From a virus (lineage: Duplodnaviria > Heunggongvirae > Uroviricota > Caudoviricetes), in IMG/VR virus record IMGVR_UViG_2740892230_000036: a stretch of DNA of 17,571 nt. One strand, written 5' to 3'. Shown piece after piece: positions 1-17,571 of the stretch (the first letter of the stretch is position 1; each line of letters starts with the position of its first letter). The notes below the pieces were generated by a model. It saw only the letters and a program-made list of their open reading frames with translations. It did not search any database and was not told the DNA's origin. A program made the translations under genes and the position numbers.

Positions 1-471
1 CTAAACGATGCGGCAGGCGTCGGCTTCCCAGCGGTAACCAACGCCGTAAACGGCGCGGATAAATGACTGTTCGGCGTCGAGAGATTCCAGCTTGCGGCGC
101 AGGTTTTTAATGTGGCTGTCGATGGTGCGGTCGGTTACTACGCGGTAGTCGTCATAAAGATGATTGAGCAAATGCTCGCGGGAGAACACTTTTCCTGGTT
201 CATGAGAGAGCGTTTTCAGCAGACGAAATTCCGCAGGCGTCAGGTCAAGCATTTTACCGCGCCATGAAGCCTGAAAACGACCTTCGTCGATAATCAACGG
301 GCTTTCAGCATCCTGTTGCTGCAACTCGCGCTGCGGTTTGCAACGGCGCAAAATGGTTTTGACGCGCGCTACCACTTCCCGTGGGCTGTACGGCTTGCAG
401 ATGTAGTCATCTGCGCCAATCTCCAGTCCGAGCAGGCGGTCGATCTCTTCGATTTTTGCCGTCACCATCAC
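1..471 (-). CDS. baeR: OmpR-family response regulator, C-terminal 156 aa (BaeR-like); upstream part of the gene missing at the N-run
   Basis: Minus-strand ORF with stop at 1-3 (cta = TAG). Translation (…[27 protein letters not shown]…[18 protein letters not shown]) matches my memory of E. coli BaeR: end of the receiver domain plus the winged-helix DNA-binding domain. The ORF runs into the N-run at 474-483 and the sequence beyond does not continue the gene. Confidence 0.7.
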
Positions 472-473
472 GA

Positions 474-483
474 NNNNNNNNNN
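474..483. other. Run of 10 N (assembly gap or masked bases)
   Basis: Literal n characters in the sequence. Adjacency of the two sides cannot be trusted. Confidence 0.99.
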
Positions 484-521
484 TATGCGCGTTCTGGCTG
501 TGCGTAGCCGGAACCTGTGGG

Positions 522-554
522 AGCACGATGCCGATAAGTGAAAGGCATCGTGCT
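522..554. repeat. Perfect 11-bp inverted repeat (stem-loop) in host flank
   Basis: agcacgatgcc (522-532) / ggcatcgtgct (544-554) around an 11-nt loop gataagtgaaa. No adjacent T-run on either strand. Confidence 0.6.
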
Positions 555-618
555 ATGAAGGAGGATTCTATCGATGTGGTCAATGGAAGACGGTTACCAG
601 AGATAGGGCTTATGCATA

Positions 619-645
619 AAAAAATAAGCCCGTGTAAGGGAGATT
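619..645. other. P2 attachment-site core at the int-proximal prophage junction (attL by analogy)
   Basis: aaaaaataagcccgtgtaagggagatt matches the 27-bp P2 att core as I recall it. Its reverse complement is the 3' terminator end of the CyaR (RyeE) sRNA, where P2-type elements sit in E. coli K-12. Lies ~80 bp from the int stop. Confidence 0.75.
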
Positions 646-724
646 TAGGGTGTCACCAGTAGGGGCTTTCAACGGTACAATGCGGGTTTGAGCGGCATAA
701 ATTACCACTGAAAGCCCTTAAACG

Positions 725-1738
725 TTACTCTACTGTGGACACTGTGTGGACACTCTCGGCCTCAGTACCACCTCTTAGCGGATTAAGAGAAATGGCGTCC
801 TGAAGGTACTCTGGCGCAAAATGAGCGTAAACCATAGTTTGCTCAATCCGCGTGTGACCTAGTATCCGTTGTAGCGTGATAATACTTCCTCCATTAATCA
901 TGAAATGAGTGGCAAAGCTGTGCCTTAGTGCATGTGTGGCTTGCCCCATTGGCAAATCCGGTTTTATTGCTTTCATTGTTCGTCTGAAGCGAGGGTAATC
1001 AGCATCAGGGAATAAAAAACCTCGTTTGTTATCCGCGATCATTTTGGCAACAGCCTCTGAGATCGGGACGGTGCGTGGTTTGTTTGTTTTCGTTTTAACA
1101 AACGTGACGCGGTTATGGATGATATTTTCTGCTTTCAAACGAGCTGCTTCTCCCCAACGTGCTCCAGTACTCAGGCAAAGAATCGCAATCTTTTTATTGT
1201 CGCCGTCAAGAGCAGCAAGCAGTAAGGCAATTTCTTCCTGCGTGAGATAGCCTGTGTCTGGTTTTTCCTCCTTAAGCCTTTTTGTCCCTCTGATAGGGTG
1301 CTCACCAAAGAATAACTCCGCTTCAATCAGGGCTGTAAACATGCCGCTAATACATGTTAAATCACGATTGATACTCGAAGGTTTAATACCCTGACTTCTT
1401 CGGGTGGCGCAGTACTGGCTGATAAGCGATTTCGTAATTTGAAATGCGCATGGGTCATTCGTTATTTTTGTGAAGATTTCAATTTTTCCAAGATTAGATT
1501 TCCCATGCTCTTCGTGTTTACCCTTTAAATCCCACCAGATCTGTGTCAGCTCCGACAGACGTCGCTTGTCTGTTGGTTTTGATAGCCATTCTTTATTGTG
1601 GTGGTTGTACAACGTGTATTTCTCGAAAGCGACAGCTTCGCTTTTCTTATCAAACTTCCTACGGATGCGTTTTCCATTACGTCCAGTAGGGCGGATGTCC
1701 ACTTCATATCGACCATCATCGAGTTTTTTGATTGCCAT
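725..1738 (-). CDS. int: Tyrosine integrase (P2 Int), 337 aa
   Basis: ORF track 337 aa; sequence recognised as P2 Int with the C-terminal tyrosine-recombinase motifs (…HALRHSFATH…LGHTRIEQTMVYAH…). SD GGAGGG 7 nt upstream of ATG; transcribed with C. Confidence 0.93.
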   Translation of the reverse strand: MAIKKLDDGRYEVDIRPTGRNGKRIRRKFDKKSEAVAFEKYTLYNHHNKEWLSKPTDKRRLSELTQIWWDLKGKHEEHGKSNLGKIEIFTKITNDPCAFQITKSLISQYCATRRSQGIKPSSINRDLTCISGMFTALIEAELFFGEHPIRGTKRLKEEKPDTGYLTQEEIALLLAALDGDNKKIAILCLSTGARWGEAARLKAENIIHNRVTFVKTKTNKPRTVPISEAVAKMIADNKRGFLFPDADYPRFRRTMKAIKPDLPMGQATHALRHSFATHFMINGGSIITLQRILGHTRIEQTMVYAHFAPEYLQDAISLNPLRGGTEAESVHTVSTVE

Positions 1739-1853
1739 CAGAAAACCCTCCGAGTGGTGTGTTTTTTGGCGACTACTAATCGCTTTTTTCGTGGTGGCTG
1801 AAATTTAGCCACCAATAGTAGGCACTTGTGATGAATATATTCACGATGAATTG

Positions 1854-2153
1854 TTAACCAGTCTTTTGACCGGAGTGGGGCGACGTTGTTTCGTTTTGCC
1901 CAAAGTGTGCGAGAGCGGGCGCAATTTGCCCGGACTCAGGAGCGATCTGATTGGTCATGAACCATAAAGTGTATTTGGTGAATTGTGGGGTCTGCAGGAT
2001 GTTCATCATGACATCTGTTGGAGGTGTTGAACGACCACTTTCATAGTAACTCAGCGTGCCATACGGAACCCCTGTTAAATCAGCAAGTTGTTGTCTGCTC
2101 AAATACTCTGATTTTCGCATTAAGACTATCTTCTCGCTTATCGTGTTTGACAT
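1854..2153 (-). CDS. C: Immunity repressor C, 99 aa
   Basis: 99-aa ORF directly upstream of int on the same strand, length and sequence as remembered for P2 C; N-terminal HTH (…LSRQQLADLTGVPYGTLSYYESG…). Confidence 0.9.
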   Translation of the reverse strand: MSNTISEKIVLMRKSEYLSRQQLADLTGVPYGTLSYYESGRSTPPTDVMMNILQTPQFTKYTLWFMTNQIAPESGQIAPALAHFGQNETTSPHSGQKTG

Positions 2154-2175
2154 GGTGTTTAGATCTCAATAGTAT
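2147..2175 (+). promoter_or_regulatory. Candidate early promoter Pe (-35 TTGACA 2147-2152, 17-bp spacer, -10 TAGTAT 2170-2175) followed by direct repeats ATTTAGT (2174-2180) / GTTTAGT (2194-2200), candidate C operators
   Basis: Perfect -35 hexamer overlapping the C start codon; plausible -10 at correct spacing; the 7-bp direct repeats are 20 bp apart around the predicted start site. Assignment to Pe and the C operators is by analogy with the P2 face-to-face switch. Confidence 0.45.
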
Positions 2176-2219
2176 TTAGTTTAGATGTAGATTGTTTAGT
2201 GCTTGGATGTGGGCACTAA

Positions 2220-2238
2220 AAGGCATTATAAGGCATTA
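2220..2238 (-). promoter_or_regulatory. Candidate lysogenic promoter Pc -10 (TATAAT on minus strand, 2225-2230) inside tandem AAGGCATTA repeats (2220-2228, 2230-2238), candidate Cox boxes
   Basis: Perfect TATAAT on the minus strand ~70 bp upstream of the C start. Two exact 9-bp direct repeats with 10-bp period overlap it. No good -35 found. Function inferred from P2 biology. Confidence 0.4.
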
Positions 2239-2267
2239 AACGCAATTCATGAGGGCTGGAGGACGAC

Positions 2268-2543
2268 ATGAGCAAGCAAGTAACACTCATGACTGATGCG
2301 ATTCCTTATCAGGAGTTCGCAAAACTAATAGGAAAATCGACAGGAGCGGTTCGTCGGATGATCGATAAAGGAAAGCTGCCTGTAATTGATATGACCGATC
2401 CACAATCAGCTTCAGGTCGTGCAGGTGAATATTGGGTATACCTTCCGGCATGGAATAACGGACTAAAACTGGCTTATGAAAGCCGCCCTAAAGAGATTCG
2501 TGACGGCTGGTTGATGTGGTTAGGTCTCGGTGAACCACGTTAA
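2268..2543 (+). CDS. cox: Cox (excisionase / Pc repressor), 91 aa
   Basis: 91-aa ORF, SD GGAGGA 6 nt upstream, first gene of the rightward operon divergent from C; matches P2 Cox position and length. Confidence 0.9.
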   Translation: MSKQVTLMTDAIPYQEFAKLIGKSTGAVRRMIDKGKLPVIDMTDPQSASGRAGEYWVYLPAWNNGLKLAYESRPKEIRDGWLMWLGLGEPR

Positions 2544-2553
2544 GGAGAACCGT

Positions 2554-2724
2554 ATGAATGAGCCTCGTTGTATTGCTCAGTTACTGCGTAACGAAAGCCC
2601 CAGGGCGATTGACTTCAACATCACCCACGGTAAGGGGCGTAAGGGAATCATTATCCGCACCAAAAAACAGAGTCCGTTAAAAAAGGCTCTGACCTTTCTG
2701 AAAAGCCGGAGGGTCTGGAAATGA
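2554..2724 (+). CDS. P2 orf78-like small protein (56 aa)
   Basis: ORF track 2530-2724; ATG at 2554 is preferred because it has an AAGGAG SD 6 nt upstream. Stop overlaps the B start. Confidence 0.7.
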   Translation: MNEPRCIAQLLRNESPRAIDFNITHGKGRKGIIIRTKKQSPLKKALTFLKSRRVWK

Positions 2725-3221
2725 CAGTGATGACGCTTAATCTCGTCGAAAAACAGCCAGCAGCTATGCGCCGGATAATTGGTAAGCATCTTGCCGTCCC
2801 TCGCTGGCAGGAGACATGCGATTATTATAATCAGATGATGGAACGCGAACGGCTAACGGTTTGCTTCCATGCGCAGTTAAAACAGCGTCACGCAACGATG
2901 CGTTTTGAAGAAATGAATGATGTCGAACGTGAACGACTGGTATGTGCAATTGATGAATTGCGTGGGGCATTCTCAAAACGCCGTCAGGTTGGCGCAAGTG
3001 AGTATGCATATATTAGTTTTTTAACAGTCAGTCAGCGTCGTACTTTATTTATGCATGCCGGATTGACTGAAAAAGAATTCAACCAGCCATACTGGCGAAT
3101 TAATGAAGAATCATGTTACTGGCGTGATGCTTTATTCCGTGCATTACGTGAATTATTCAGCCTGTTTGAGTATGCACCGACAATTCTGACGTCGGTAAAA
3201 CCAGAGCAATATCTGCATTAA
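2721..3221 (+). CDS. B: Replication protein B (helicase-loader-like), 166 aa
   Basis: 166-aa ORF in the P2 B position and of the P2 B length; ATGA overlap with the orf78 stop. Confidence 0.88.
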   Translation: MTVMTLNLVEKQPAAMRRIIGKHLAVPRWQETCDYYNQMMERERLTVCFHAQLKQRHATMRFEEMNDVERERLVCAIDELRGAFSKRRQVGASEYAYISFLTVSQRRTLFMHAGLTEKEFNQPYWRINEESCYWRDALFRALRELFSLFEYAPTILTSVKPEQYLH

Positions 3222-3284
3222 GTAATTAACCAGAGTTTTTAACGCACTTAATTGTGCGGGGCTTCTTTTTGCCTGGAGAAAGTC

Positions 3285-3509
3285 ATGCATACAGTTTCTG
3301 AAAATCAGTGCGGTAAATACGCATTACTGCTGCAACAGGCCAGAACCGAAGCACAGGCCGACGCAGCGACGCGCTTTTCTTCTCATCTTGACGCCATGAT
3401 TCGCCACATCACAAAGGCGGAGTTATCCCGCGTGGAGATAGTCGAGCTGCTCAGTCAGGAGTCGGAAAAATTTCACAATATCGGATTGTCTCGCGGGGAG
3501 GTGCTTTGA
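3285..3509 (+). CDS. P2 orf80-like hypothetical protein (74 aa)
   Basis: ORF track 3252-3509; ATG at 3285 preferred (GGAGAAAG SD upstream). Conserved position and length. Confidence 0.7.
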
Positions 3510-3811
3510 TGTCCTGTTCTCGTTCAGTTGTATTACTGAATAACGCCTTAAAAATCGCCGTTATGAAAAATGGCGATTTATCTCTTATTCAACTTGGTCT
3601 TGATAAAGAAAAACGCGAAATAACTGAGTCAGTTATCGCGATTTATCAGAACGAATTAAATCTCCTGTCTGATGTGGTCAATTTACTTGTTAAACGCGCT
3701 GTATTTCACAAGCAAATCTCCTCCGTGGATGAACTGACGAAATTAACGACAGAAATTGCCAGCTATTGCGCTGATGAATTTAAAAAACTTAACGACAAAA
3801 GGAGCTGGTAA
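3509..3811 (+). CDS. P2 orf81-like hypothetical protein (100 aa)
   Basis: ATG at 3509 overlaps the orf80 stop (TGATG); GGGAGG SD upstream. Confidence 0.75.
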   Translation: MSCSRSVVLLNNALKIAVMKNGDLSLIQLGLDKEKREITESVIAIYQNELNLLSDVVNLLVKRAVFHKQISSVDELTKLTTEIASYCADEFKKLNDKRSW

Positions 3812-4035
3812 TGCCGGACAACGTAGATTTTATTCAGGAACAACAGGCTGAATTACTGGAGCGCCAGATTAACGCGGCAAGGGTAAAGCATTGCGGTGTT
3901 TCTGCGCTGGTTTGCGAAGAGTGTGACGCGCCAATACCTGCTGCCCGTCGTGCGGCTTATCCGTCAGCCACGCGTTGTGTTTCCTGCCAGTCAGTCTTTG
4001 AAGCAAAAAACAAACATTACCGGAGAACGGCATGA
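3811..4035 (+). CDS. P2 orf82-like, TraR/DksA-type C4 zinc-finger protein (74 aa)
   Basis: CEEC … ~18 aa … CVSC spacing typical of DksA/TraR zinc fingers; ATG overlaps the orf81 stop. Confidence 0.8.
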   Translation: MPDNVDFIQEQQAELLERQINAARVKHCGVSALVCEECDAPIPAARRAAYPSATRCVSCQSVFEAKNKHYRRTA

Positions 4036-4307
4036 GTATTCGTATTGAAATTGGCGAACGTTATGTCGTTACCAGTGACAGCTTTCAGTTTATTCTCCAC
4101 GAGAAAAAGAGAGCTGAAAGCGGTAAAAACGCCGGTCAGGAATGGTTGGCGGTGGTTGGTTATTACCCGAAATTAAGCCAGCTCGTTTCCGGCCTGATGC
4201 ATCACGATATTCTGACCGGAAGCGCAAAGTCTTTTGCTGATTTAAACGCGCAGGTTGAGCAACTCAGCAAGCGTTGTTCAGAGGCTTTTGGCTCATATGG
4301 CCGTTAA
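4032..4307 (+). CDS. P2 orf83-like hypothetical protein (91 aa)
   Basis: 91-aa ORF, start overlaps the orf82 stop, stop overlaps the A start region. Confidence 0.75.
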   Translation: MSIRIEIGERYVVTSDSFQFILHEKKRAESGKNAGQEWLAVVGYYPKLSQLVSGLMHHDILTGSAKSFADLNAQVEQLSKRCSEAFGSYGR

Positions 4308-6582
4308 AGCCTCCGGGCGTTTTGTCCCTCCGTCAGCATTTGCCGCAGGCACCGGTGAGACGTTTACCGGTGCTTATGCATGGAACGCGCCACGCGAGGC
4401 CGTCGGGCGCGAAAGACCCCTTACACGTGACGAGATGCGTCAGGTGCAAGGTGTTTTATCCACGATTAATCGCCTGCCTTACTTTTTGCGCTCGCTGTTT
4501 ACTTCACGCTATGACTACATCCGGCGCAATAAAAGCCCGGTGCACGGGTTTTATTTCCTCACATCCACTTTTCAGCGCCGTTTATGGCCGCGTATTGAGC
4601 GCGTGAATCAGCGCCATGAAATGAACACCGACGCGTCGTTGCTGTTTCTGGCAGAGCGTGACCATTATGCGCGTCTGCCGGGGATGAATGACAAGGAGCT
4701 GAAAAAGTTTGCCGCCCGTATCTCATCGCAGCTTTTCATGATGTATGAGGAACTTTGCGATGCATGGGTTGATGCACATGGCGAGAAAGAATCGCTGTTT
4801 ACAGATGAGGCGCAGGCGCATCTGTATGGTCATGTTGCTGGCGCTGCACGTGCTTTCAATATTTCCCCTCTCTACTGGAAAAAATACCGTAAAGGACAGA
4901 TGACCACGAGGCAGGCATATTCTGCCATTGCCCGCCTGTTTAACGATGAGTGGTGGATTAGTCAGCTTAAAGGCCAGCGTATGCGCTGGCATGAGGCGTT
5001 ACTGATTGCTGTCGGGGAGGTCAATAAAGACCGTTCACCTTATGCCAGTAAACATGCCATTCGTGATGTGCGTGCGCGCCGCCAGGCAAATCTGGAATTT
5101 CTTAAATCGTGTGACCTTGAAAACAGGGAAACCGGCGAGCGCATCGACCTTATCAGTAAGGTGATGGGCAGTATTTCTAATCCTGAAATTCGCCGGATGG
5201 AGCTGATGAACACCATTGCCGGTATTGAGCGTTACGCCGCCTCAGAGGGTGATGTGGGGATGTTTATCACGCTTACCGCGCCGTCAAAGTATCACCCGAC
5301 ACGTCAGGTTGGAAAAGGCGAAAATAAAACCGTCCAGCTTAATCACGGCTGGAATGATGAGGCATTTAATCCAAAGGATGCGCAGCGTTATCTCTGCCGT
5401 ATCTGGAGCCTGATGCGCACGGCATTCAAGGATAATGATTTACAGGTCTACGGTTTGCGAGTCGTCGAGCCACACCACGACGGAACGCCGCACTGGCATA
5501 TGATGCTTTTTTGTAATCCACGCCAGCGTAACCAGATTATCGAAATCATGCGTCGCTATGCGCTCAAAGAGGATGGCGACGAAAGAGGAGCCGCGCGAAA
5601 CCGTTTTCAGGCAAAACACCTTAACCGGGGCGGTGCTGCGGGATATATCGCGAAATACATTTCAAAAAATATCGACGGCTATGCACTGGATGGTCAGCTC
5701 GATAACGATACCGGCAGACCGCTGAAAGATACTGCGGCGGCTGTTACCGCATGGGCGTCAACGTGGCGCATCCCGCAATTTAAAACGGTTGGCCTGCCGA
5801 CAATGGGAGCTTACCGTGAGCTACGTAAATTGCCTCGCGGCGTCAGCATTGCTGATGAATTTGACGAACGCGTGGAGGCTGCACGCGCCGCCGCAGACAG
5901 TGGCGATTTTGCGTTGTATATCAGCGCGCAGGGCGGGGCAAATGTCCCGCGCGATTGTCAGACTGTCAGGGTCGCCCGTAGCCCGTCGGATGAAGTTAAC
6001 GAGTACGAGGAAGAAGTCGAGAGAGTGGTCGGCATTTACGCGCCGCATCTCGGCGCGCGTCATATTCATATCACCAGAACGACGGACTGGCGCATCGTGC
6101 CGAAAGTTCCGGTCGTTGAGCCTTTGACTTTAAAAAGCGGCATCGCCGCGCCTCGGAGTCCTGTCAATAACTGTGGAAAGCTCTCCGGTGGTGATACTTC
6201 GTTACCGGTTCCCACACCTTCTGAACATGCCGCAGCCGTGCTTAATCTGGTTGATGACGGTGTTATCGAATGGAATGAGCCAGAGGTCGTGAGGGCGCTC
6301 AGAGGTGCATTAAAACACGGACTGAGAACACCAAATCGTCAGCAGAGAAACGGAAGCCTGTTAAAACCACATGAAATAGCGCCATCGGCCAGACTGACCC
6401 GGTCGGAACGAACGCAAATTACCCGTATCCGCGTTGACCTTGCTCAGAACGGTATCAGGCCGCAGCGATGGGAGATTGAGGCGCTGGCGCGTGGGGCAAC
6501 CGTAAATTATGACGGGAAAAAATTCACGTATCCGGTCGCTGATGAGTGGCCGGGATTCTCAACAGTAATGGAGTGGACATGA
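4297..6582 (+). CDS. A: Rolling-circle replication initiator A (HUH endonuclease), 761 aa
   Basis: ORF track 4255-6582; in-frame ATG at 4297 gives 761 aa, the P2 A length. HUH-type motif (…GTPHWHMMLF…) and paired active-site tyrosines (…GYIAKYISKN…). Confidence 0.92.
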   Translation: MAVKASGRFVPPSAFAAGTGETFTGAYAWNAPREAVGRERPLTRDEMRQVQGVLSTINRLPYFLRSLFTSRYDYIRRNKSPVHGFYFLTSTFQRRLWPRIERVNQRHEMNTDASLLFLAERDHYARLPGMNDKELKKFAARISSQLFMMYEELCDAWVDAHGEKESLFTDEAQAHLYGHVAGAARAFNISPLYWKKYRKGQMTTRQAYSAIARLFNDEWWISQLKGQRMRWHEALLIAVGEVNKDRSPYASKHAIRDVRARRQANLEFLKSCDLENRETGERIDLISKVMGSISNPEIRRMELMNTIAGIERYAASEGDVGMFITLTAPSKYHPTRQVGKGENKTVQLNHGWNDEAFNPKDAQRYLCRIWSLMRTAFKDNDLQVYGLRVVEPHHDGTPHWHMMLFCNPRQRNQIIEIMRRYALKEDGDERGAARNRFQAKHLNRGGAAGYIAKYISKNIDGYALDGQLDNDTGRPLKDTAAAVTAWASTWRIPQFKTVGLPTMGAYRELRKLPRGVSIADEFDERVEAARAAADSGDFALYISAQGGANVPRDCQTVRVARSPSDEVNEYEEEVERVVGIYAPHLGARHIHITRTTDWRIVPKVPVVEPLTLKSGIAAPRSPVNNCGKLSGGDTSLPVPTPSEHAAAVLNLVDDGVIEWNEPEVVRALRGALKHGLRTPNRQQRNGSLLKPHEIAPSARLTRSERTQITRIRVDLAQNGIRPQRWEIEALARGATVNYDGKKFTYPVADEWPGFSTVMEWT
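6148..6167 (+). other. Candidate P2 ori / A-protein nick region inside the A gene
   Basis: gcgcctcggagtcctgtcaa lies in the 3' quarter of A, where the P2 origin is known to reside. The exact nick-site sequence is from memory and unverified. Confidence 0.35.
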
Positions 6583-7034
6583 TGGCAAAAATTCACGAGG
6601 TAAAGCTGCACGCAAAATATTTCGACCTTGTGCTGGAAGGAAAGAAACGCGCAGAGTTTAGGAAAAATGACCGTAATTATGAGCACGGGGACACGTTGAT
6701 TTTGCATGAATGGGTGCAGGGTGTGTATACGGGGCGAAAGGTTGAAGCCCGGATAACAGATGTTACTGACCTGTCAGATTGGCTGGAAGATTATGTCTTG
6801 CTAAGTATTGAGCTGCTTAATACAGGCGCATATGAGATTGTGAACTGGAAAGAACTTAGTGAGCGTGGTCTGGTATTCAGAATTAATCATGAAATTATGC
6901 ATCAGCTCGGCCTTGCTGTTATGTATGAACCAGAGACGGGGATGTCTGGCGGGGCAATGGTTGCCACGGATGGAGCATGGAACTATTCAGATGAACAGAT
7001 GGAGCGTGCACCGCAAAACGGGTGGCTTGGATAA
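6579..7034 (+). CDS. P2 orf91-like protein with ASCH/PUA-like (DUF3850-type) fold, ~151 aa
   Basis: ATG at 6579 overlaps the A stop; motif …KYFDLVLEGKKRAEFRKNDRNYEHGDTLILHEW… is typical of ASCH-like phage proteins. Start could be 6582. Confidence 0.75.
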   Translation: MMAKIHEVKLHAKYFDLVLEGKKRAEFRKNDRNYEHGDTLILHEWVQGVYTGRKVEARITDVTDLSDWLEDYVLLSIELLNTGAYEIVNWKELSERGLVFRINHEIMHQLGLAVMYEPETGMSGGAMVATDGAWNYSDEQMERAPQNGWLG

Positions 7035-7240
7035 TGCACAGAATACCAGGCGAGATACCGCACCATAAAACTAAAAATATCAAGCTGATGGCCATTGTTC
7101 ACCGTCTACAGCAGATTATGGTCAACGAAAATCTGACGCCCGATGAGCTAGTCGGGTGTGCCGAAATAGTCCGGGATAATTACGTATGGCTTAGCTATAT
7201 CGGTCAGTCCAGCGCTGCATCGCCACCACGCAGACGATAG
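7034..7240 (+). CDS. Hypothetical small protein (68 aa) at the hotspot boundary
   Basis: ATG overlaps the orf91 stop (TAATG); backbone-like composition; no recognisable domain. Alternative GTG start at 7022. Confidence 0.5.
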   Translation: MHRIPGEIPHHKTKNIKLMAIVHRLQQIMVNENLTPDELVGCAEIVRDNYVWLSYIGQSSAASPPRRR

Positions 7241-7429
7241 AGAACGCAGCCAGCTCAGGATTGGCGGGGGATAGAATAACGAGCATAGTGATGCGATTAG
7301 ACAAACAGACTGACTGGTACACTTAGGATGGTTATAGTGGTTTCTAAGTGCTTTAGCGATACATCTGGTGGACTGTTTTACCAACCTCAGAGTTAGCTGA
7401 ATTTTTAACAAAATACCATTTTGATAGAT

Positions 7430-7457
7430 TTGCCTAATTTATTAATTAAACTATACT
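7430..7457 (+). promoter_or_regulatory. Candidate sigma70 promoter for the plus-strand cargo operon (-35 TTGCCT 7430-7435, 16-bp spacer, -10 TATACT 7452-7457)
   Basis: Hexamers read directly in the AT-rich leader ~90 bp upstream of the 7549 start. Many alternative AT-rich hexamers exist nearby. Confidence 0.3.
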
Positions 7458-7548
7458 GGACTTATACACAGTGTTCTGTTAATTGTTAGGTTGGTAAGAT
7501 ATTGTGAGGAGGTGATTACTATCTTGGCATCAATCAAGTGGAGGTTAA

Positions 7549-7785
7549 ATGATGAATATATTTGAACGTATTATAGGTAAAGCTGCCATTGAAAAGGAAA
7601 GAGAACTGGCGAGGAGGCTTGAAGCATCTGGAACAAACACTGTTGAGGTGGTAGGTCGAGGCGCGATTATCACGTCTAAAGAAGACTTGGCAAGCTCAGA
7701 TACAGTAAAATTGATGAAAATTAAAGCAAGAAGAATAGTTTCTGAGCAGGTAAAGCAAGAAGAAAAAATGGCTAAAGGGAATTAA
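7549..7785 (+). CDS. Cargo gene 1: small soluble charged protein (78 aa), unknown function
   Basis: SD GTGGAGG 4-7 nt before ATG 7549/7552; AT-rich codon usage unlike the P2 backbone; stop 2 nt before the next gene's ATG. No domain recognised. Confidence 0.75.
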   Translation: MMNIFERIIGKAAIEKERELARRLEASGTNTVEVVGRGAIITSKEDLASSDTVKLMKIKARRIVSEQVKQEEKMAKGN

Positions 7786-7787
7786 TA

Positions 7788-8549
7788 ATGTTTGCTTTAT
7801 TAATTATTCCATTACTTGTGAGTGGTTATATTGTATTAACCACTCATCCTTATCATTTCTATAGATTACACCGTTATGATGGGCAGTTGTTATATATGAA
7901 GTCAGCCGCCTTTGGTCTGTGGTGTTTTATATGGACATTGATTATAGCTTACTTAATAAAATGGATATGTCCGAGCTTCCATCCTGTCACGATGGTTCGG
8001 GAACAATTAGATCTCAAACTTAGTGATAATGGTACTGAAAGAATCATAGGATGGATGATTTTACTTTCATGTGGATCGATATTTTTGGCTTGGATATGGA
8101 GTGCCGGTGCTAGATATTTGGTTATATATAGAGCTAAAATTATAAATTATATCCAAGGGGTAAAGGCTGCCAATATTGATTATGAGAATCTTGTCATGCT
8201 AAGGATGAGGCAAGAGCTTATTAATGATAATCCAATGGATGAAATATTTTTTGATTCGTTAGTTGATAGACGTTCAATACTTATTACGTTGCAAAATAAA
8301 AAGACATATGTAGGAATTGTTAACGCATTAGGTGAGCCTAACGAGAAAGAAGGACCTAACCAGTATGTTTCAATCTATCCTATTATCTCTGGGTATAGAG
8401 ATAAGGATTCATTGAAAGTAATCTTGGTGAATGAATATAGAGAACTTGAGGATGCTGATACTAGTATCATCTTTCCACTAAAAGAAATTTCGCAAGTTTC
8501 TTGGTTTGATATGGATATTCATAAAATAGTTGAAAATAATAAGGTGTAG
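7788..8549 (+). CDS. Cargo gene 2: membrane protein with 3 N-terminal TM helices plus ~145-aa C-terminal soluble domain (253 aa), unknown function
   Basis: Hydrophobic stretches FALLIIPLLVSGYIVLTT, AAFGLWCFIWTLIIAYLIKWI and IIGWMILLSCGSIFLAWIWSAGA, followed by a hydrophilic domain. Operonic with the 78-aa gene. Confidence 0.85.
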   Translation: MFALLIIPLLVSGYIVLTTHPYHFYRLHRYDGQLLYMKSAAFGLWCFIWTLIIAYLIKWICPSFHPVTMVREQLDLKLSDNGTERIIGWMILLSCGSIFLAWIWSAGARYLVIYRAKIINYIQGVKAANIDYENLVMLRMRQELINDNPMDEIFFDSLVDRRSILITLQNKKTYVGIVNALGEPNEKEGPNQYVSIYPIISGYRDKDSLKVILVNEYRELEDADTSIIFPLKEISQVSWFDMDIHKIVENNKV

Positions 8550-8552
8550 TAA

Positions 8553-8577
8553 ATGGTCACCTATAAAAGGTGACCAT
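8553..8577. terminator. Bidirectional intrinsic-terminator-like hairpin between the convergent cargo operons
   Basis: Perfect 9-bp stem atggtcacc / ggtgaccat with loop tataaaa, 4 nt after the plus-strand stop (8549) and 6 nt before the minus-strand stop (8583-8585). T-rich tract ttattttt follows on the plus strand; A/T-rich on the other side. Confidence 0.5.
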
Positions 8578-8582
8578 AATGC

Positions 8583-10847
8583 TTATTTTTGACGAATCCT
8601 GATTTTTGGTTGTTCACGAACAACAATATCAGTTTCTTTCCAACCAAGATTATTTATTTCAACCTCGGCTTCGTTGTAGACTGTAGTAGAATTGGCAAGA
8701 GATCTTAACGTAATAGCCAATACAGCACGTTGAGGTGAAGATAGAGGCTCTTGCTCTGCTCGTCTCTGAACATCAAGTTTAAGTCTCCATTGCTCCCCAT
8801 TTATACCTTGCGGAAATTGTTTTCTATAAACTTTGACTGGAGACCATTTGAAGCCATTTTCTATCAGTACCTTTTCAAATAATTCACTCTTTTCTTTTAT
8901 TTGTGGAATTTTTCCGCTATGTATCCATTTAGCGTTAACTGGATCATAAGTGTAAGTCCCGAATGACACATCCACATTAGAACGGCAATATTCAGATGGG
9001 TAGTCATAATCAAGCGGTGGAGAATAAACGAGTGTCATAATAATTTCACCTGTGAATTTTCCATCCTCAGTACGTAATGACTGTGGTATTACAAATGGCG
9101 TTCTACTGAATTCAATACCTTCTCGGGTATCTATTTCAAATAGAAATGTAATCTCATTTTTATTGCAACCAATAATATCATTTATATGATCGCTTGGGCG
9201 TCCAAATCCTTGATAATTAAACGCATAATGCTCCGTTTTGGCTGGTGAGTTTTTTAACGCAGAATGAATTAATAGTGCCTTGATACGTTCAGGCGATGGT
9301 GAAATAGAACCATTAACATCTAGTTCATGCCACAGTGATGCCGCTAAACTTGAGATTAACGGTGCTGATAAACTTGTGCCAATACTTTCGCAAAGAGCAT
9401 TGTCCTCGCCAATAGCTATGATTCCGGTATGTTCACAGTTTAATTTACTGTCACAATTACCTCCAAAGTGATTTATCTCTGGTTTGGGTATAAAGGCTGG
9501 GCCGGGACCTCTTCTAGAAAAAGATGAAGGTTCAAATCTTTTGACCACAGAGTCAGACGATTCTAAATGGGCAACTGAGCCAACAGTTAATGAACGAACA
9601 GAATCTGCGGGGGCTGATATTCTGTCATGCCCACCTAATTCTTGAGGAGGCCAGGTTCGTTGAGGATCATAAATGTAGTTGCCGGATGCTACGACGAAAA
9701 GACAATCATGCTCATCATGAAGTGCATTTAAAAAATGCCCCAATTCAGAGAAGCTGTCTTCAGAACATGGGGATTGACAACCTAATGACAGGTTCCATAC
9801 ACGTACTTCTGGATAGGTGGTCACAGCCTCTCGGATAGCTTTCATTAATTGTGGCAATTTGAGCGTACCATCTTTGGGAAAGGCTGCAACATCAACAATT
9901 TCAGCTTGGCATTGAGGAAAACCAGCATAGTTATTCAACCATCTTCCATTAATTGCTAAACTTGCAACCATGTTCCCATGAGAATAGTCGTGTTCTCCTT
10001 TTACTAAATCTAAACTATCCCAAATCCATGGCCTAAGTATGTTGTTATTGGGATCGACTCCGCTATCTATAATTCCGAGTAGTGGATAATGTTTATCCTC
10101 TTGAGGTAAGGGAAAATCATCTAGGTCTAGAGTTTCAGCAGGAATATATTGCGATACTGTATGAGTAAGACCAAATGTTGGCATAGGTTCTAATTTTCGT
10201 ATGCCAATAAAACTTGCCAGTTGGGCGATGTTATCATTCCCTTTTACTTCATATATACTCAAATCTGAACTGATATCATACTTTTTGGGTTTTTGTATTC
10301 CTAGTTCATCTGCAAATTCCATTAATTCTTTGTCGATACTGCGGTTAGTTGTTCTATCTTTATGGTCAAAGAGTTTCAGAAGAAAACTATCTGATTTATT
10401 TTTATCTATAACATCATGGTTAAGACTAAAAGGTTCGATCTTTTCAATTACAGCAATATGTACTGTCCCATTATGAGAATTAGTGCTATTTTCAATTTTT
10501 TTGCGAAGTTGTGCTAACCCTTTTTCAGTAACACTTATAAGTAATTCTCCAAAATTATCACTGCCTATTACGGGACATGTATTATCACCTAATAGGCTTG
10601 ATGGGCGATGTGACTTAGCAAGAGCTTTTTCATGAAGAGTAACTCTAGCCACCGCCGGTATATTGGGCCATTTTTTAAATGAGCTCTGGAAAAAATTTTT
10701 AACGTCATCGACTTCTTGTTTGAGTCTATTTTTTAGACTAGTTGTTACTGTTCGGATAGGTTGTTTCTTTCCGAAATTATATGTTTTTTCAGTAAAATCT
10801 TGAGGTGTCGCCTCAATTATTTTTATTGGTCTTTCTTTGTTACTCAT
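8583..10847 (-). CDS. Cargo gene 4: subtilisin-like serine protease (peptidase S8), 754 aa, with uncharacterised N- and C-terminal extensions; IetS-like
   Basis: Catalytic motifs in canonical order: Asp (…LLGIIDSGVD…, ~D261), His (…DYSHGNMVASLA…, ~H290), oxyanion Asn (…VVASGNY…), Ser (…IGTSLSAPL…, ~S492; codon at 9372-9374). Start ATG overlaps the ATPase stop (ATGA). Confidence 0.88.
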   Translation of the reverse strand: MSNKERPIKIIEATPQDFTEKTYNFGKKQPIRTVTTSLKNRLKQEVDDVKNFFQSSFKKWPNIPAVARVTLHEKALAKSHRPSSLLGDNTCPVIGSDNFGELLISVTEKGLAQLRKKIENSTNSHNGTVHIAVIEKIEPFSLNHDVIDKNKSDSFLLKLFDHKDRTTNRSIDKELMEFADELGIQKPKKYDISSDLSIYEVKGNDNIAQLASFIGIRKLEPMPTFGLTHTVSQYIPAETLDLDDFPLPQEDKHYPLLGIIDSGVDPNNNILRPWIWDSLDLVKGEHDYSHGNMVASLAINGRWLNNYAGFPQCQAEIVDVAAFPKDGTLKLPQLMKAIREAVTTYPEVRVWNLSLGCQSPCSEDSFSELGHFLNALHDEHDCLFVVASGNYIYDPQRTWPPQELGGHDRISAPADSVRSLTVGSVAHLESSDSVVKRFEPSSFSRRGPGPAFIPKPEINHFGGNCDSKLNCEHTGIIAIGEDNALCESIGTSLSAPLISSLAASLWHELDVNGSISPSPERIKALLIHSALKNSPAKTEHYAFNYQGFGRPSDHINDIIGCNKNEITFLFEIDTREGIEFSRTPFVIPQSLRTEDGKFTGEIIMTLVYSPPLDYDYPSEYCRSNVDVSFGTYTYDPVNAKWIHSGKIPQIKEKSELFEKVLIENGFKWSPVKVYRKQFPQGINGEQWRLKLDVQRRAEQEPLSSPQRAVLAITLRSLANSTTVYNEAEVEINNLGWKETDIVVREQPKIRIRQK

Positions 10848-12007
10848 AATATCTCTCTATAGTTCTTAGTTAGCCTTGACACTTTAGCATTTGAAAGCCC
10901 TAGTATTTTTGCTATCTTTCGTATTGTAAATCTTTTGGGATTGTATTCTCTGAGAGTGGTCACAATCTTTATAAGTAAATTATCTTCTTCATCAAATGTA
11001 ACTCCCTTCGCTTCTAAGATAGCCTCGACTAAAAATCGGGTATCGATTTGTTTATTATTGTAAACCAGAGCATGTCGCTCAGATCTTAAGCAGCATTGTT
11101 CTATAAATGAGCAGTTTAGCCCTGAGGATATTTCCGCAAGGTCATCAACAAAATCGTCATATGTGGCTTTTATGTTTGAATATTGTTCAAATAGTTGTTT
11201 TCTGACTTCAAAATCAGGCAATCCAATAGATATTCTATACTCAAAGCGCCTCCAAACTGCGCTATCTAGAAGATTTTCATGATTACTTGCAGCAATCAAT
11301 ATTGTTTCTTCAGGTAGATTGTCAATATTTTGCAATAAAGAAACCACCACCCTCTTCAGTTCACCTAACTCATGCTGATCATCTCTAGCCTTTGCTAGAG
11401 AATCTAGTTCATCTAGAAATAAAACACATGGTGCTTTACTTGCATACTCAAATAGCTGCCTGATATTTTTAGAAGTAGACCCCAGATATGATGAGACTAA
11501 GGAGTCACATCTTGCAGTAAGAAGCGGTAAATTTAGACAGGATGCAATATATTTTGATGTCAAGGTTTTACCACAACCTGGTGGCCCATATAAAATCATA
11601 GAGGATGTCACGCCAAGACCGGCATCCTTTAATTCTTTAGCTCGTTCAGTGAAAGTCAAAAATTCTTTAATTTTTTTCAGAGTGCTATCTTTCAACAATG
11701 GGAGTTGAATTTCAGAAGACGGTTGAGTTACGTCTGCTAAATCAAATTTAGTTTCTTTATCTACAGGTAATGTATCAAGACGTTCAAAAATAGGTGATGT
11801 ACTACGTGATACTTTCTGCAAGTTAAACGTGTTTTTATCTTGAATACTGCCTCTAATGGCTGAAGCAAGCTCAGGCAGCCCCATAGAATCATAGGAACGC
11901 GCGAGTTTCGAAGCCTGCCGAACAAAAGCAACTTTATCCCCTTTGAGTCCAAGACTGATAAGCTGCGAAAGTATCTCGTTTGTGGTCATTTGTGATACAA
12001 ACCTCAT
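10844..12007 (-). CDS. Cargo gene 3: AAA+ ATPase (387 aa) with C-terminal HTH-like tail; IetA-like
   Basis: Walker A …ILYGPPGCGKTL… (K~147), Walker B …CVLFLDELDSL…, sensor-1 …IAASN…, Arg-finger region …VWRRF…. C-terminus …IRKIAKILGLSNAKVSRLTKNY… resembles a helix-turn-helix. Alternative start at Met7 (11989). Confidence 0.88.
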   Translation of the reverse strand: MRFVSQMTTNEILSQLISLGLKGDKVAFVRQASKLARSYDSMGLPELASAIRGSIQDKNTFNLQKVSRSTSPIFERLDTLPVDKETKFDLADVTQPSSEIQLPLLKDSTLKKIKEFLTFTERAKELKDAGLGVTSSMILYGPPGCGKTLTSKYIASCLNLPLLTARCDSLVSSYLGSTSKNIRQLFEYASKAPCVLFLDELDSLAKARDDQHELGELKRVVVSLLQNIDNLPEETILIAASNHENLLDSAVWRRFEYRISIGLPDFEVRKQLFEQYSNIKATYDDFVDDLAEISSGLNCSFIEQCCLRSERHALVYNNKQIDTRFLVEAILEAKGVTFDEEDNLLIKIVTTLREYNPKRFTIRKIAKILGLSNAKVSRLTKNYREIL

Positions 12008-12248
12008 TAATCTGTTGTCTAAATGGCTTATAGGTGAGACAAATTTCTATTTTAATGTAGTTTATATGTATTTTGGTGAAACGAACACTATGTTTTACAT
12101 AAATCTTTCAGGTTTGGAGTTCTTGGAGGGCATAGAGTTGCATCAATTTGCATTCTAATTAGACTTTTTTATTGCTATCGTATTCTACATGTGACTAGGT
12201 CTGCCCTTCCTGATGCGTTTGCATTAAAACCGCCCCATGAAGCGGGCG

Positions 12249-12267
12249 GGCGAGGCGGGGAAAGCAC
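12249..12267. other. P2 cos (19-nt cohesive-end sequence)
   Basis: ggcgaggcggggaaagcac matches the P2 cohesive end as I recall it, and sits between the cargo and Q exactly where cos lies in an integrated P2. Confidence 0.8.
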
Positions 12268-12409
12268 TGCGCGCTGGCGGTGGTGCTGATTTTATTTTTT
12301 CAGCGTCTGAGCGCGTCGTGACGGCGTTTAGATTGTGCACCGGGGCGTTGGTGTGTTTGCGGGGTGTTTTGTGCGGTGGTGAGCGTGTGAGGGCGTGATG
12401 ACGGGATGT

Positions 12410-12431
12410 AAAAAAGCCGCCCGCAGGCGGC
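12410..12431 (-). terminator. Intrinsic terminator after Q (end of the leftward P-Q late transcript)
   Basis: Minus-strand GC hairpin gccgcc-tgcg-ggcggc (12416-12431) followed by TTTTTT (plus-strand A-run 12410-12415), 5 nt after the Q stop. Confidence 0.65.
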
Positions 12432-12436
12432 AATGT

Positions 12437-13471
12437 TCAGTCGTTGTCAGTGTCCAGTGAGTAGTTTTTAAAGCGGATGACCTCCTGACCGAGCCAGCCG
12501 TTTATTTCCCGAATCCTGTCCTGTAACGGGATAAGCTCATTGCGGACAAAGACCTTTGCCACTTTCTCAATATCACCCAGCGCCCCGACGTTCTCCGGCT
12601 TGCCGCCCATCAACTGAAAGGGGATGCGGTGCGCGTCCAGCAGGTCTGCGGCACTGGCTTTTTTGATATTAAAAAAATCGTCCTTCGTCGCCACTTCACT
12701 GAGCGGGATAATTTTAATGCCGTCGGCTTTCCCTTGTGGGGCATAGAGAAACAGATTTTTAAAGTTGTTGCGGCCTTTCGACTTCACCATGTTTTCGCGA
12801 AGCATTTCGATATCGTTGCGATCCTGCACGGCATCGGTGACGTACATGATGTATCCGGCATGTGCGCCGTTTTCGTAATACTTGCGGCGGAACAGCGTGG
12901 CTGATTCATTCAGCCAGGCAGAGTTAAGGGCGCTGAGATATTCCGGCAGGCCGTACAGCTCCTGATTAATATCCGGCTCCAGCAGGTGAAACACGGAGCC
13001 GGGCGCGAAAGGTGTCGGCTCGTTGAAGGACGGCACCCACCAGTAAACATCCTCCTCCACGCCACGGCGGGTATATTTTGCCGGTGAGGTTTCCAGTCTG
13101 ATGACCTTACCGGTGGTGCTGTAACGCTTTTCCAGAAACGCATTACCGAACACCAGAAAATCCAGCACAAAGCGGCTGAAATCCTGCTGGGAAAGCCACG
13201 GGTGCGGGATAAACGTTGAAGCCAGAATATTACGTTTGACGTAAATCGGTGAACTGTGATACACGGCAGCACGCAGACTTTTTGCCAGACCGGTAAAGCT
13301 GACCGGCGGCTCATACCATCTGCCGTTACTGATGCATTCGACGTAATCCAGAATGTCACGGCGGTCGAGTACCGGCACCGGCTCACCAAAGGTGAATGCC
13401 TCCATTTTCGGGGCGCTGGCGGTCATTGTTTTTGCCGCAGGTCGCGGTGTTTTCCCTTTTTTCTTGCTCAT
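12437..13471 (-). CDS. Q: Portal protein Q, 344 aa
   Basis: 344-aa ORF of P2 Q length; sequence recognised as the P2 capsid portal; start overlaps the P stop. Confidence 0.93.
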   Translation of the reverse strand: MSKKKGKTPRPAAKTMTASAPKMEAFTFGEPVPVLDRRDILDYVECISNGRWYEPPVSFTGLAKSLRAAVYHSSPIYVKRNILASTFIPHPWLSQQDFSRFVLDFLVFGNAFLEKRYSTTGKVIRLETSPAKYTRRGVEEDVYWWVPSFNEPTPFAPGSVFHLLEPDINQELYGLPEYLSALNSAWLNESATLFRRKYYENGAHAGYIMYVTDAVQDRNDIEMLRENMVKSKGRNNFKNLFLYAPQGKADGIKIIPLSEVATKDDFFNIKKASAADLLDAHRIPFQLMGGKPENVGALGDIEKVAKVFVRNELIPLQDRIREINGWLGQEVIRFKNYSLDTDND

Positions 13472-15243
13472 CAGTAAAACTCCAGAATGGTGGATGTCAG
13501 CGGGGTGCTGATACCGGCGGTGAGTGGCTCATTTAACAGGGCGTGCATGGTCGCCCAGGCGAGGTCGGCGTGGCTGGCTTCCTCGCTGCGGCTGGCCTCA
13601 TAGGTGGCGCTGCGTCCGCTGCTGGTCATGGTCTTGCGGATAGCCATAAACGAGCTGGTGATGTCGGTGGCGCTGACGTCATATTCCAGACAGCCACGGC
13701 GGATAACGTCTTTTGCCTTGAGCACCATTGCGGTTTTCATTTCCGGCGTGTAGCGGATGTCGCGCGCGGCGGGATAGAACGAGCGAACGAGCTGGAACAC
13801 GCCGACACCGAGGCCGGTGGCATCAATTCCGATGTATTCGACGTTGTATTTTTCGGTGAGTTTGCGGATGGATTCAGCCTGGGTGGCAAAGTCCATGCCT
13901 TTCCACTGGTGACGCTCAAGTATTCTGAATTTGCCACCGGCCACCACCGGCGGTGCCAGCACCACGCATCCGGCACTGTCGCCACGGTGTGACGGGTCGT
14001 AACCAATCCATACCGGGCGGGAGCCGAACGGATTCGCGGCAAACGGCGCATAGTCTTCCCATTCTTCCAGCGTGTCGACCATGCAGCGTTGCAGCTCCTC
14101 GAACGGGAACACCGACGCCTTGTCGTCAACAAATTCACACATGAACAGGTTTTTAAAATCGTCGGCGCTGTTTTCACGTTTGAGCTGCTCAATGTCGAAC
14201 AGCGTGCAGCCACCTTTCAGGGCGTCCTCAATGGTGACAATCTGCCGCCACTGGCCGTCCGCACAGAGAAGCCCCCCGGCAAGGGCGTTATGACTGACGT
14301 CGATTTCCACGCGTTCGGCGGCGCTGGCGCGTCCCCGGTTGAACAGTTCACCCGACCAGAATGGGTAGGCGTCGTGCGCCAGCGTGGACGGGGTGGAGAA
14401 ATAGGTCGAGCGCAGGTGGCTCTGTGAGGCCATACCTGATGCCACCTTACGCAGTACCTGAAAATTCGGGATCCAGAAAATCTCGTCGACGTACAGGTCG
14501 CCGTTATGGCTCTGTGCGGTGTTGGAGTTGGTGCCGAGAAAAATCAGTTTTGCGCCGTTATTGCCCAGGACAATCGGGTCACCGGTCAGGTCAACGTCAA
14601 CCAGCCGGGCAAAGGCGATGATGTATTCGCGGAACACATACGCCTGCGTTTTACTGGCCGACAGAAAAATCTGGTTATGACCGGTTTTCAGGGCGCGCAG
14701 CAGCGCCTCGCGGGAAAAATAAAACGTCGCGCCAATCTGGCGGGATTTCAGGATATCGCGGATGCGGTGCTCAAGCCCGGCGCGATACCAGTGCAACTGA
14801 TAGTCGAAAGACTGCTCAAAGAAAATCTGCTCCAGCTTTTCGATGGCCTCGTCACTGAAAAAATTCTTTTTCGGTTTGCGACGCCCGCCTTTGTTGCGGT
14901 TAGCGACGTTCGGATTAAGGTCTGCCTCGTTGCCGGTCTGACTGTAGCGGTTTACCCGTGCCAGTCGTTCAATCTGGCGTCCGAGCAGGTCAATTTCCTT
15001 GAAGTCACCGCCGGTTTTCTGCGGTTTGATGATGAGCTGGGTCAGCCGCGCTTCCAGACTCATTTCGACACGGCTGATGGGGGCAACGCTGTCCCAGCCG
15101 TCGCGCTGTTTCCAGCTCTGCACCGTCGGGCGTTTCATCTGCAACATGGCGGCAATCTGCGGCACGGAAAATCCCTGCCAGTACAGCAGCGCCGCCTGAC
15201 GACGCGGGTCGTGTAAAAGAGTGGTGTCTGTGGTGATGGTCAT
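13471..15243 (-). CDS. P: Terminase large subunit (ATPase) P, 590 aa
   Basis: ORF track 13471-15273; ATG at 15241-15243 with a GAGG SD gives 590 aa, the P2 P length. Confidence 0.92.
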   Translation of the reverse strand: MTITTDTTLLHDPRRQAALLYWQGFSVPQIAAMLQMKRPTVQSWKQRDGWDSVAPISRVEMSLEARLTQLIIKPQKTGGDFKEIDLLGRQIERLARVNRYSQTGNEADLNPNVANRNKGGRRKPKKNFFSDEAIEKLEQIFFEQSFDYQLHWYRAGLEHRIRDILKSRQIGATFYFSREALLRALKTGHNQIFLSASKTQAYVFREYIIAFARLVDVDLTGDPIVLGNNGAKLIFLGTNSNTAQSHNGDLYVDEIFWIPNFQVLRKVASGMASQSHLRSTYFSTPSTLAHDAYPFWSGELFNRGRASAAERVEIDVSHNALAGGLLCADGQWRQIVTIEDALKGGCTLFDIEQLKRENSADDFKNLFMCEFVDDKASVFPFEELQRCMVDTLEEWEDYAPFAANPFGSRPVWIGYDPSHRGDSAGCVVLAPPVVAGGKFRILERHQWKGMDFATQAESIRKLTEKYNVEYIGIDATGLGVGVFQLVRSFYPAARDIRYTPEMKTAMVLKAKDVIRRGCLEYDVSATDITSSFMAIRKTMTSSGRSATYEASRSEEASHADLAWATMHALLNEPLTAGISTPLTSTILEFY

Positions 15244-15416
15244 GAATACCTCGCCGTGATGAATACACGGCAAGGCTACTGAGTCGCGCCCCGCGATTCG
15301 CTAAGGTGCTGTTGTGTCAGTGATAAGCCATCCGGGACTGATGGCGGAGGATGCGTATCGTCGGGAAACTGATGCCGACATGTGACTCCTCTAATCACTA
15401 TTCAGGACTCCTGACA
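15244..15416. promoter_or_regulatory. Divergent late-promoter region between P (leftward) and O (rightward)
   Basis: 173-bp intergenic region between divergently oriented late operons. In P2 these are Ogr-activated late promoters. No exact TGT-N12-ACA dyad was found by eye, so individual elements are not called. Confidence 0.4.
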
Positions 15417-16271
15417 ATGGCAAAAAAAGTCTCAAAATTCTTTCGTATCGGCGTTGAGGGTGACACCTGTGACGGGCGTGTCATCAGTGCGCAGGATATT
15501 CAGGAAATGGCCGAAACCTTTGACCCGCGAGTCTATGGTTGCCGCATTAACCTGGAACATCTGCGCGGCATCCTGCCTGACGGTATTTTTAAGCGTTATG
15601 GCGATGTGGTCGAACTGAAGGCCGAAAAGATTGACGATGATTCGGCGCTGAAAGGCAAATGGGCGCTGTTTGCGAAAATCACCCCGACCGATGACCTTAT
15701 CGCGATGAACAAGGCCGCGCAGAAGGTCTACACCTCAATGGAAATTCAGCCGAACTTTGCCAACACCGGCAAATGTTATCTGGTGGGGCTGGCCGTCACC
15801 GATGACCCGGCAAGCCTCGGCACGGAATACCTGGAATTCTGCCGCACGGCAAAACACAACCCCCTGAACCGCTTCAAATTAAGCCCTGAAAACCTGATTT
15901 CAGTGGCAACGCCCGTTGAGCTGGAATTTGAAGACCTGCCTGAAACCGTGTTCACCGCCCTGACCGAAAAGGTGAAGTCCATTTTTGGCCGCAAACAGGC
16001 CAGCGATGATGCCCGTCTGAATGACGTGCATGAAGCGGTGACCGCTGTTGCTGAACATGTGCAGGAAAAACTGAGCGCCACTGAGCAGCGCCTCGCTGAG
16101 ATGGAAACCGCCTTTTCCGCACTTAAGCAGGAGGTGACTGACAGGGCGGATGAAACCAGCCAGGCATTCACCCGCCTGAAAAACAGTCTCGACCACACCG
16201 AAAGTCTGACCCAGCAGCGCCGCAGCAAGGCCACCGGTGGTGGCGGTGACGCCCTGATGACGAACTGCTGA
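15417..16271 (+). CDS. O: Capsid scaffolding protein O, 284 aa
   Basis: ORF track 15351-16271; ATG at 15417 (MAKKVSKFF…) gives 284 aa, the P2 O length. Confidence 0.9.
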   Translation: MAKKVSKFFRIGVEGDTCDGRVISAQDIQEMAETFDPRVYGCRINLEHLRGILPDGIFKRYGDVVELKAEKIDDDSALKGKWALFAKITPTDDLIAMNKAAQKVYTSMEIQPNFANTGKCYLVGLAVTDDPASLGTEYLEFCRTAKHNPLNRFKLSPENLISVATPVELEFEDLPETVFTALTEKVKSIFGRKQASDDARLNDVHEAVTAVAEHVQEKLSATEQRLAEMETAFSALKQEVTDRADETSQAFTRLKNSLDHTESLTQQRRSKATGGGGDALMTNC

Positions 16272-16329
16272 CCGGTGTCAGTCAGTCCGGGAAAACCTTC
16301 ACGATTAACCCTTAATTTCAGGAAAAACT

Positions 16330-17406: not shown

Positions 17407-17571
17407 ATGACGAGTCCCGCACAGCGCCACATGATGCGGGTCTCGGCAGCGATGACCGCGCAGCGGGAAGCCGCCCCGCTGCGACATGCAACTGTCTATG
17501 AGCAGATGCTGGTTAAGCTCGCCGCAGACCAGCGCACACTGAAAGCGATTTATTCAAAAGAGCTGAAGGCC
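17407..17571 (+). CDS. M: Terminase small (endonuclease) subunit M, N-terminal 55 codons; continues past the window
   Basis: ATG at 17407, 4 nt after the N stop, open to the window end (MTSPAQRHMMRV…); P2 M position. Confidence 0.8.
   Translation, partial: MTSPAQRHMMRVSAAMTAQREAAPLRHATVYEQMLVKLAADQRTLKAIYSKELKA

Follow-up and report, generated by a model that had tools for sequence, protein, structure and literature searches.

At the left-hand end of the window, by which is meant the whole stretch of 17,571 nt analysed here (IMG/VR virus record IMGVR_UViG_2740892230_000036), the 3' part of the E. coli gene baeR is followed by a run of ten Ns, a short chromosomal flank, a P2-type att core and the integrase end of a P2-like prophage. 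The sequence to the left of the N-run is referred to as contig A and the sequence to its right as contig B. The features of the window are as follows.

1-473, minus strand: 3' part of baeR, 473 of 723 nt, comprising 2 nt of codon 84, codons 85-240 and the stop codon (at 1-3); right-hand end of contig A
474-483: assembly gap placeholder of 10 N at the join of contigs A and B, the sole N-run in the window by an N scan
484-618: chromosomal flank F2, from the spacer between yegR and cyaR, yegR-proximal to the att core; start of contig B
619-645: P2-type att core, 27 bp, attL copy, placed by attL/attR identity in lysogen 90-9281
646-724: phage attP arm, from the core to the int stop codon; divergence from attB starts at 646
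725-1738, minus strand: P2-type tyrosine integrase, 337 aa (ORF list, Pfam and the annotation of the closest complete lysogen)
734-741 and 745-752: two direct repeats of TGTGGACA, just within the 3' end of int
1854-2153, minus strand: C repressor, followed by cox and the remaining P2-like prophage up to the scaffold end
7549-8549, plus strand: two ORFs of 78 aa and 253 aa, no match in PADLOC
8583-12007, minus strand: IetS (S8 peptidase, 754 aa) and IetA (AAA ATPase, 387 aa), identified by PADLOC
17407-17571: first 165 nt of a terminase small-subunit (gpM-like) gene, at the window and scaffold end

The baeR fragment is collinear with the native gene right up to the Ns, reaching from the stop codon to nt 251. 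Its match to E. coli GMM060 baeR is perfect (100% identity), and many other strains match it at 99.8%. The 250 nt that are absent from the window correspond to codons 1-83 and encode most of the receiver domain. The NCBIfam equivalog profile for BaeR was matched over profile positions 82-235 of 235 (E=2.5e-91); with 305.4 bits against a cut-off of 380, an intact BaeR of 240 aa with receiver and winged-helix domains was not found in the window.

The att core was delimited by comparing attL with attR in 90-9281, the closest complete lysogen, and keeping the sequence over which the two agree fully. The resulting 27-mer, AAAAAATAAGCCCGTGTAAGGGAGATT, is common to attL and attR of that genome, to window positions 619-645 and to the attB of the prophage-free strain L6-21, and in the window it lies 135 nt past the N-run. 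In a prophage-free genome (L001), Rfam placed CyaR at 6139-6224 on the minus strand with 100.7 bits. Positions 6139-6162 of L001 align to window 622-645, so that the minus strand of this segment constitutes the last 24 nt of CyaR, namely the 3' half of the terminator hairpin and the U-tail. CyaR gave no Rfam match in the window itself because attL keeps just these 24 nt, and an Rfam E-value scan of positions 400-900 returned chance-level matches only. The first-pass annotation, made from the letters of the window, had described a baeR that is complete at its 3' end and cut about 250 bp short at the N-run, an att core about 135 bp beyond the Ns, and a core equal to the 3' end of CyaR; all three descriptions are borne out by these placements.

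The Pfam domains Int_N and Phage_integrase were found on the identical int gene in two of the stretches compared (L035 and L044). The TGTGGACA repeats agree with the consensus tgTGGaCa of P2-type Int arm sites (PMC3448106). Their count is weak evidence when taken by itself, at least two matches having occurred in 20 of 200 shuffles, and the argument rests on their position. On the host side of the core, a perfect hairpin with a 12-bp stem is located at 520-553 within the yegR-cyaR spacer (GAGCACGATGCC ... GGCATCGTGCTC, the right arm read on the minus strand). This hairpin is probably the terminator of yegR; its Rfam match was at chance level only.

In the body of the prophage, PADLOC identified IetS (E=1e-273) and IetA (E=9e-132), which are predicted to form an IetAS anti-phage defence pair. 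The pair occupies a variable region flanked by the replication genes on one side and the portal gene on the other, and the same cargo is found in 90-9281 and in the sibling assembly described below. The 78-aa and 253-aa ORFs lie directly upstream of IetAS in the same variable region and are annotated as 'hypothetical' in the complete genome. The scaffold holds about half of a prophage of ~33.7 kb; the other end, with ogrK and attR, must lie on a different contig.

The native arrangement of the locus was read from complete genomes. In the orientation of the window, prophage-free L6-21 carries the gat operon, yegS, yegR, spacer F, and then cyaR, yegQ, yegP, baeR and baeS, the last five on the minus strand. 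In the lysogens H9Ecoli and 90-9281 the order is yegR, F, core and int at one end of the prophage, and ogrK, core/cyaR, yegQ, yegP and baeR at the other; the P2-like prophage measures 33.7 kb in these two complete genomes. Natively, baeR and cyaR therefore share a strand, with baeR ~2.1 kb upstream, and the prophage sits on the side of cyaR away from baeR. The map on which the first-pass annotation had relied, with baeR about 2 kb upstream of cyaR in the same orientation, thus agrees with the genomes compared, and its judgement that the window does not fit this map also holds, as baeR was found within joining distance of flank F in 0 of 5,426 complete E. coli genomes.

At the yegR-cyaR spacer, L6-21, H9Ecoli and 90-9281 have the same sequence as window positions 484-645. 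Among IMG/VR stretches carrying the 41-mer of F2, all 28 of 28 had yegR-side sequence in the 40 nt leftward. The joint of truncated baeR, Ns and F2 was found in 0 viral contigs and 0 GTDB representative contigs; the junction-pattern search of GTDB was able to match Ns, as controlled on the window itself. In the window, the host flank outside the core does not lead into yegR: it reaches 135 nt from the core before the N-run cuts it off, and beyond the Ns lies baeR. The missing continuation into yegR is the fault of the scaffold and not of the att site, because the sibling assembly, the complete lysogens and the 28 IMG/VR stretches all continue into yegR.

One further IMG/VR record, IMGVR_UViG_2565956724_000008 (47,980 nt; L003 and L030), carries the yegR-F2 flank at both of its ends in inverted orientation, an arrangement that points to a chimeric assembly of this prophage locus, palindromic or of another kind.

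The source of the window was traced through the 155-aa ORF left by the truncation of baeR. Exact look-up of this ORF led to scaffold CCPR01000318.1 (67,325 nt) of assembly GCA_000752855.1, of which the window is positions 49753-67323 of 67325, i.e. the right-hand 17.6 kb to the scaffold end. Over the 10,468 nt compared, the window and the reverse complement of L035, taken from position 10001, agree without a mismatch.

The same ORF is shared by other public assemblies, and a lineage with a broken baeR was considered as its source. This was ruled out by alignment, which showed independent point lesions unrelated to the N-run: in L032, GAA at codon 75 has become the stop codon TAA, and L033, L034 and L036-L039 carry 1-nt indels within homopolymer runs. 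L034 is the complete genome CP027472.1, in which baeR has one additional T in a T-run; the remaining indel cases are 1-nt deletions. Sequencing error may account for some of these broken baeR genes in public assemblies, and others may be true pseudogenes.

To the left of the baeR fragment, contig A continues through yegP, parD, parE, yegQ, cyaR, an empty attB, yegR, yegS and the gat operon. The empty attB lies ~3.4 kb left of window position 1 and consists of yegR, spacer F1, the core and a full cyaR; no prophage is present between yegQ and yegR in the gene table of CCPR01000318.1. The 4-kb end of contig A is collinear with many complete genomes at 99.8% identity. The locus is thus present twice in one scaffold and with different alleles, F1 at the empty attB and F2 at attL.

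The parD/parE toxin-antitoxin pair between yegP and yegQ (L035 11245-11794) lies outside the window on the same scaffold. It is present in the background of contig A and in GMM060, is absent from L6-21 and 90-9281, and is a strain-variable islet beside the P2 att site.

Within 162 nt, F1 and F2 (window 484-645) are separated by 10 substitutions plus an indel of 1 nt. Contig B starts, at position 484, on the first base at which they differ (C versus T), after at least 51 identical aligned nt. The baeR fragment likewise separates the two backgrounds: of its 473 positions, 10 (40, 46, 172, 202, 397, 403, 406, 427, 430 and 439) are not as in the F2-type genomes L6-21 and 90-9281. Contig A ends (473) 34 nt past the previous allele-separating SNP in baeR (439) and 2 nt before the next (475).

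Lysogens among the complete genomes carry various, lineage-specific F alleles, and GMM060, whose baeR is identical to that of the window and which has parDE, is a lysogen with F1 adjoining int. The allele of spacer F tracks the chromosomal background and not the phage; contig B therefore derives from a different chromosomal background than contig A. Transport of flank F with the phage was ruled out by the lineage-specific alleles and by the F1 beside int in GMM060, and a tandem or recent intragenomic duplication of the segment from F to baeR was ruled out by the differences between F1 and F2.

An insertion sequence or other repeat hidden in the gap, truly interrupting baeR and with a further copy beside F through which the scaffold was bridged, was also weighed. 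Contigs do end at IS copies during assembly, and a collapsed repeat is often what an N-run represents. Here the sequence is native on both sides up to the Ns and bears no IS terminal repeats. The yegR-F1 spacer of the scaffold itself is uninterrupted, the F2 allele is foreign, and the genome would still have to hold the locus twice; an interruption of this kind is highly improbable.

Look-up of the gpA protein of the window led to a second scaffold, CCQE01000101.1 of GCA_000752595.1, an assembly that appears, from the neighbouring accession numbers, to belong to the same submission series as GCA_000752855.1. Window positions 484-16582 match this scaffold at 100.000% identity over 16,099 nt with 0 mismatches. 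Leftward from the flank, CCQE01000101.1 runs without Ns into yegR, yegS and gat (order yegS-yegR-flank-int). Over the gat-yegR flank, contig A is 99.3% identical to CCQE01000101.1, the 6.4 kb compared containing 33 mismatches and 2 gaps. These figures bear on the idea of a single strain in which lysogenic cells were mixed with cured cells that had excised the prophage, empty attB and attL both being assembled and then chained. The scaffold does hold both junctions, but excision leaves the same flank allele in place, and the differences at 11 of 162 spacer positions, together with the divergence over the gat-yegR flank, refute a mixture of this type and leave it next to no probability.

Taken together, the adjacency of baeR and the prophage is very probably an assembly artefact, in which a placeholder of 10 N chains two contigs that are alternative haplotypes of one locus. 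A disruption of baeR is, with similar confidence, regarded as unsupported, the truncation being simply the end of a contig at nt 251 of the gene. On this reading contig A is ordinary E. coli chromosome with an empty attB and a chance end within baeR, and contig B holds the usual attL of a P2-like prophage that entered the cyaR 3' end in an F2 background, where yegR is its true left neighbour. From the anatomy of this one scaffold we infer that the read set held two E. coli haplotypes, through a mixed culture or cross-contamination between sibling isolates, and GCA_000752855.1 is probably a mixed assembly.

The steps by which such a scaffold could arise can be outlined. The lysogen haplotype would leave the yegR sequence shared by both at the first SNP between F1 and F2, which is where contig B starts, and read pairs would tie contig B to yegR inside contig A. 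A scaffolder unable to place B within A might then append it past the end of A, which would put it 3.6 kb downstream of yegR with its orientation relative to A correct and the gap at its minimum. A gap of 10 N is a common minimal-gap convention of scaffolders. Contig boundaries at haplotype-discriminating sites fit a de Bruijn graph built from two haplotypes and are what such a graph produces. The end of contig A is explained more loosely: on the speculative assumption that the node ended at 439+k-1, k would be 35. Reference-guided ordering of contigs may have been the cause instead, but scaffolding from read pairs or the graph was preferred, since the record is only one among 318 or more separate scaffolds. 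The biology beneath the artefact is standard, with P2-type Int recombining the 27-bp core of attP with the identical 27 bp of the cyaR terminator; integration regenerates cyaR at attR and leaves a copy of the core beside the yegR-side flank at attL.

The competing possibility is that the joint is real and was left unclosed by the assembler. The cell would then be a merodiploid, or otherwise rearranged, carrying in addition to its own locus a segment of ~36.5 kb from another E. coli lineage (F2, the prophage, cyaR, yegQ, yegP and the 3' part of baeR), generated by an illegitimate circularising join of baeR nt ~251 to the left end of F2 and added to the chromosome by, for example, a single crossover. 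In its topology the junction does match the joint left when exactly the native segment running from F into mid-baeR (36.5 kb in 90-9281) is circularised or duplicated in tandem; scaffolders usually require real read-pair links, and both pieces stand in their native relative orientation. However, the baeR at the joint is the allele of contig A, the recipient type found in GMM060, and not that of L6-21 or 90-9281, which counts against a merodiploid because a junction made in the donor should carry the donor baeR. Microhomology, IS ends and filler were looked for at both break points and none was seen, the structure is absent from the 5,426 complete genomes, and the start of contig B on the first SNP is the pattern of a graph branch rather than of a recombination joint. 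Neither continuous sequence across the joint nor recurrence in independent assemblies was found, the joint consisting of 10 N only. A real rearrangement is accordingly considered very unlikely. If true, it would mean that a prophage-centred piece of chromosome had been moved by illegitimate circularisation and re-insertion, the recipient keeping its empty attB alongside.

The first-pass annotation had left two alternatives standing, a scaffold join or misassembly marked by the N-run and a real rearrangement or insertion that truncates baeR. The first is upheld by the second copy of the locus and by the identity with the sibling assembly, and no support was obtained for the second. The artefact is therefore more than a mis-ordered contig: since the scaffold already holds an empty attB, and the prophage contig carries the other flank allele and is identical to the sibling assembly, it amounts to the chaining of two haplotypes of one locus.

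Read at face value, the window would show BaeR, a regulator of the envelope-stress response, disrupted in association with a prophage, and P2 inserted in a new context; neither is supported. The main value of the analysis is one of caution, and the signature of haplotype chaining is usable to filter similar false junctions: a fixed run of 10 N, a further copy of the locus with another allele within a few kb, and a contig starting on the first discriminating SNP.

Three known situations were compared with the window. In aberrant excision, as in specialised transduction of the lambda gal/bio type, a prophage end with a short host flank likewise comes to lie beside unrelated host DNA, as F2 does here. 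The window differs in that its F2 flank is the normal attL of an F2-type lysogen, the identical sequence entering yegR in the sibling assembly, and in that its joint consists of Ns and offers no novel joint sequence.

P2-type integration in the cyaR terminator is already known. The 'cyaR RNA' has been described as the insertion site of P2-type elements in strains W, K-12 and B (PMC3032704). The elements at cyaR (ryeE) are Wphi2 in W, P2*B in REL606 and the ogr-D' remnant (ogrK-yegZ) in K-12, all at the same insertion site. The present prophage resembles them in the 27-bp core, identical between attL and attR of 90-9281, in the position of int at the yegR-side junction, with ogrK beside cyaR in the complete lysogens, and in the P2-type TGTGGACA arm repeats, which are present in the window. 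At the att site there is no difference from the cyaR P2-type prophages; only the occurrence of baeR in place of yegR to the left of the N-run sets the window apart, and this is ascribed to the join.

With haplotype-chained draft assemblies, a comparison that here draws on the anatomy of one scaffold, the window has in common two alleles of one locus in a single scaffold, a fixed minimal N-run, a boundary on a discriminating SNP, and a second haplotype identical to another sample of the series.
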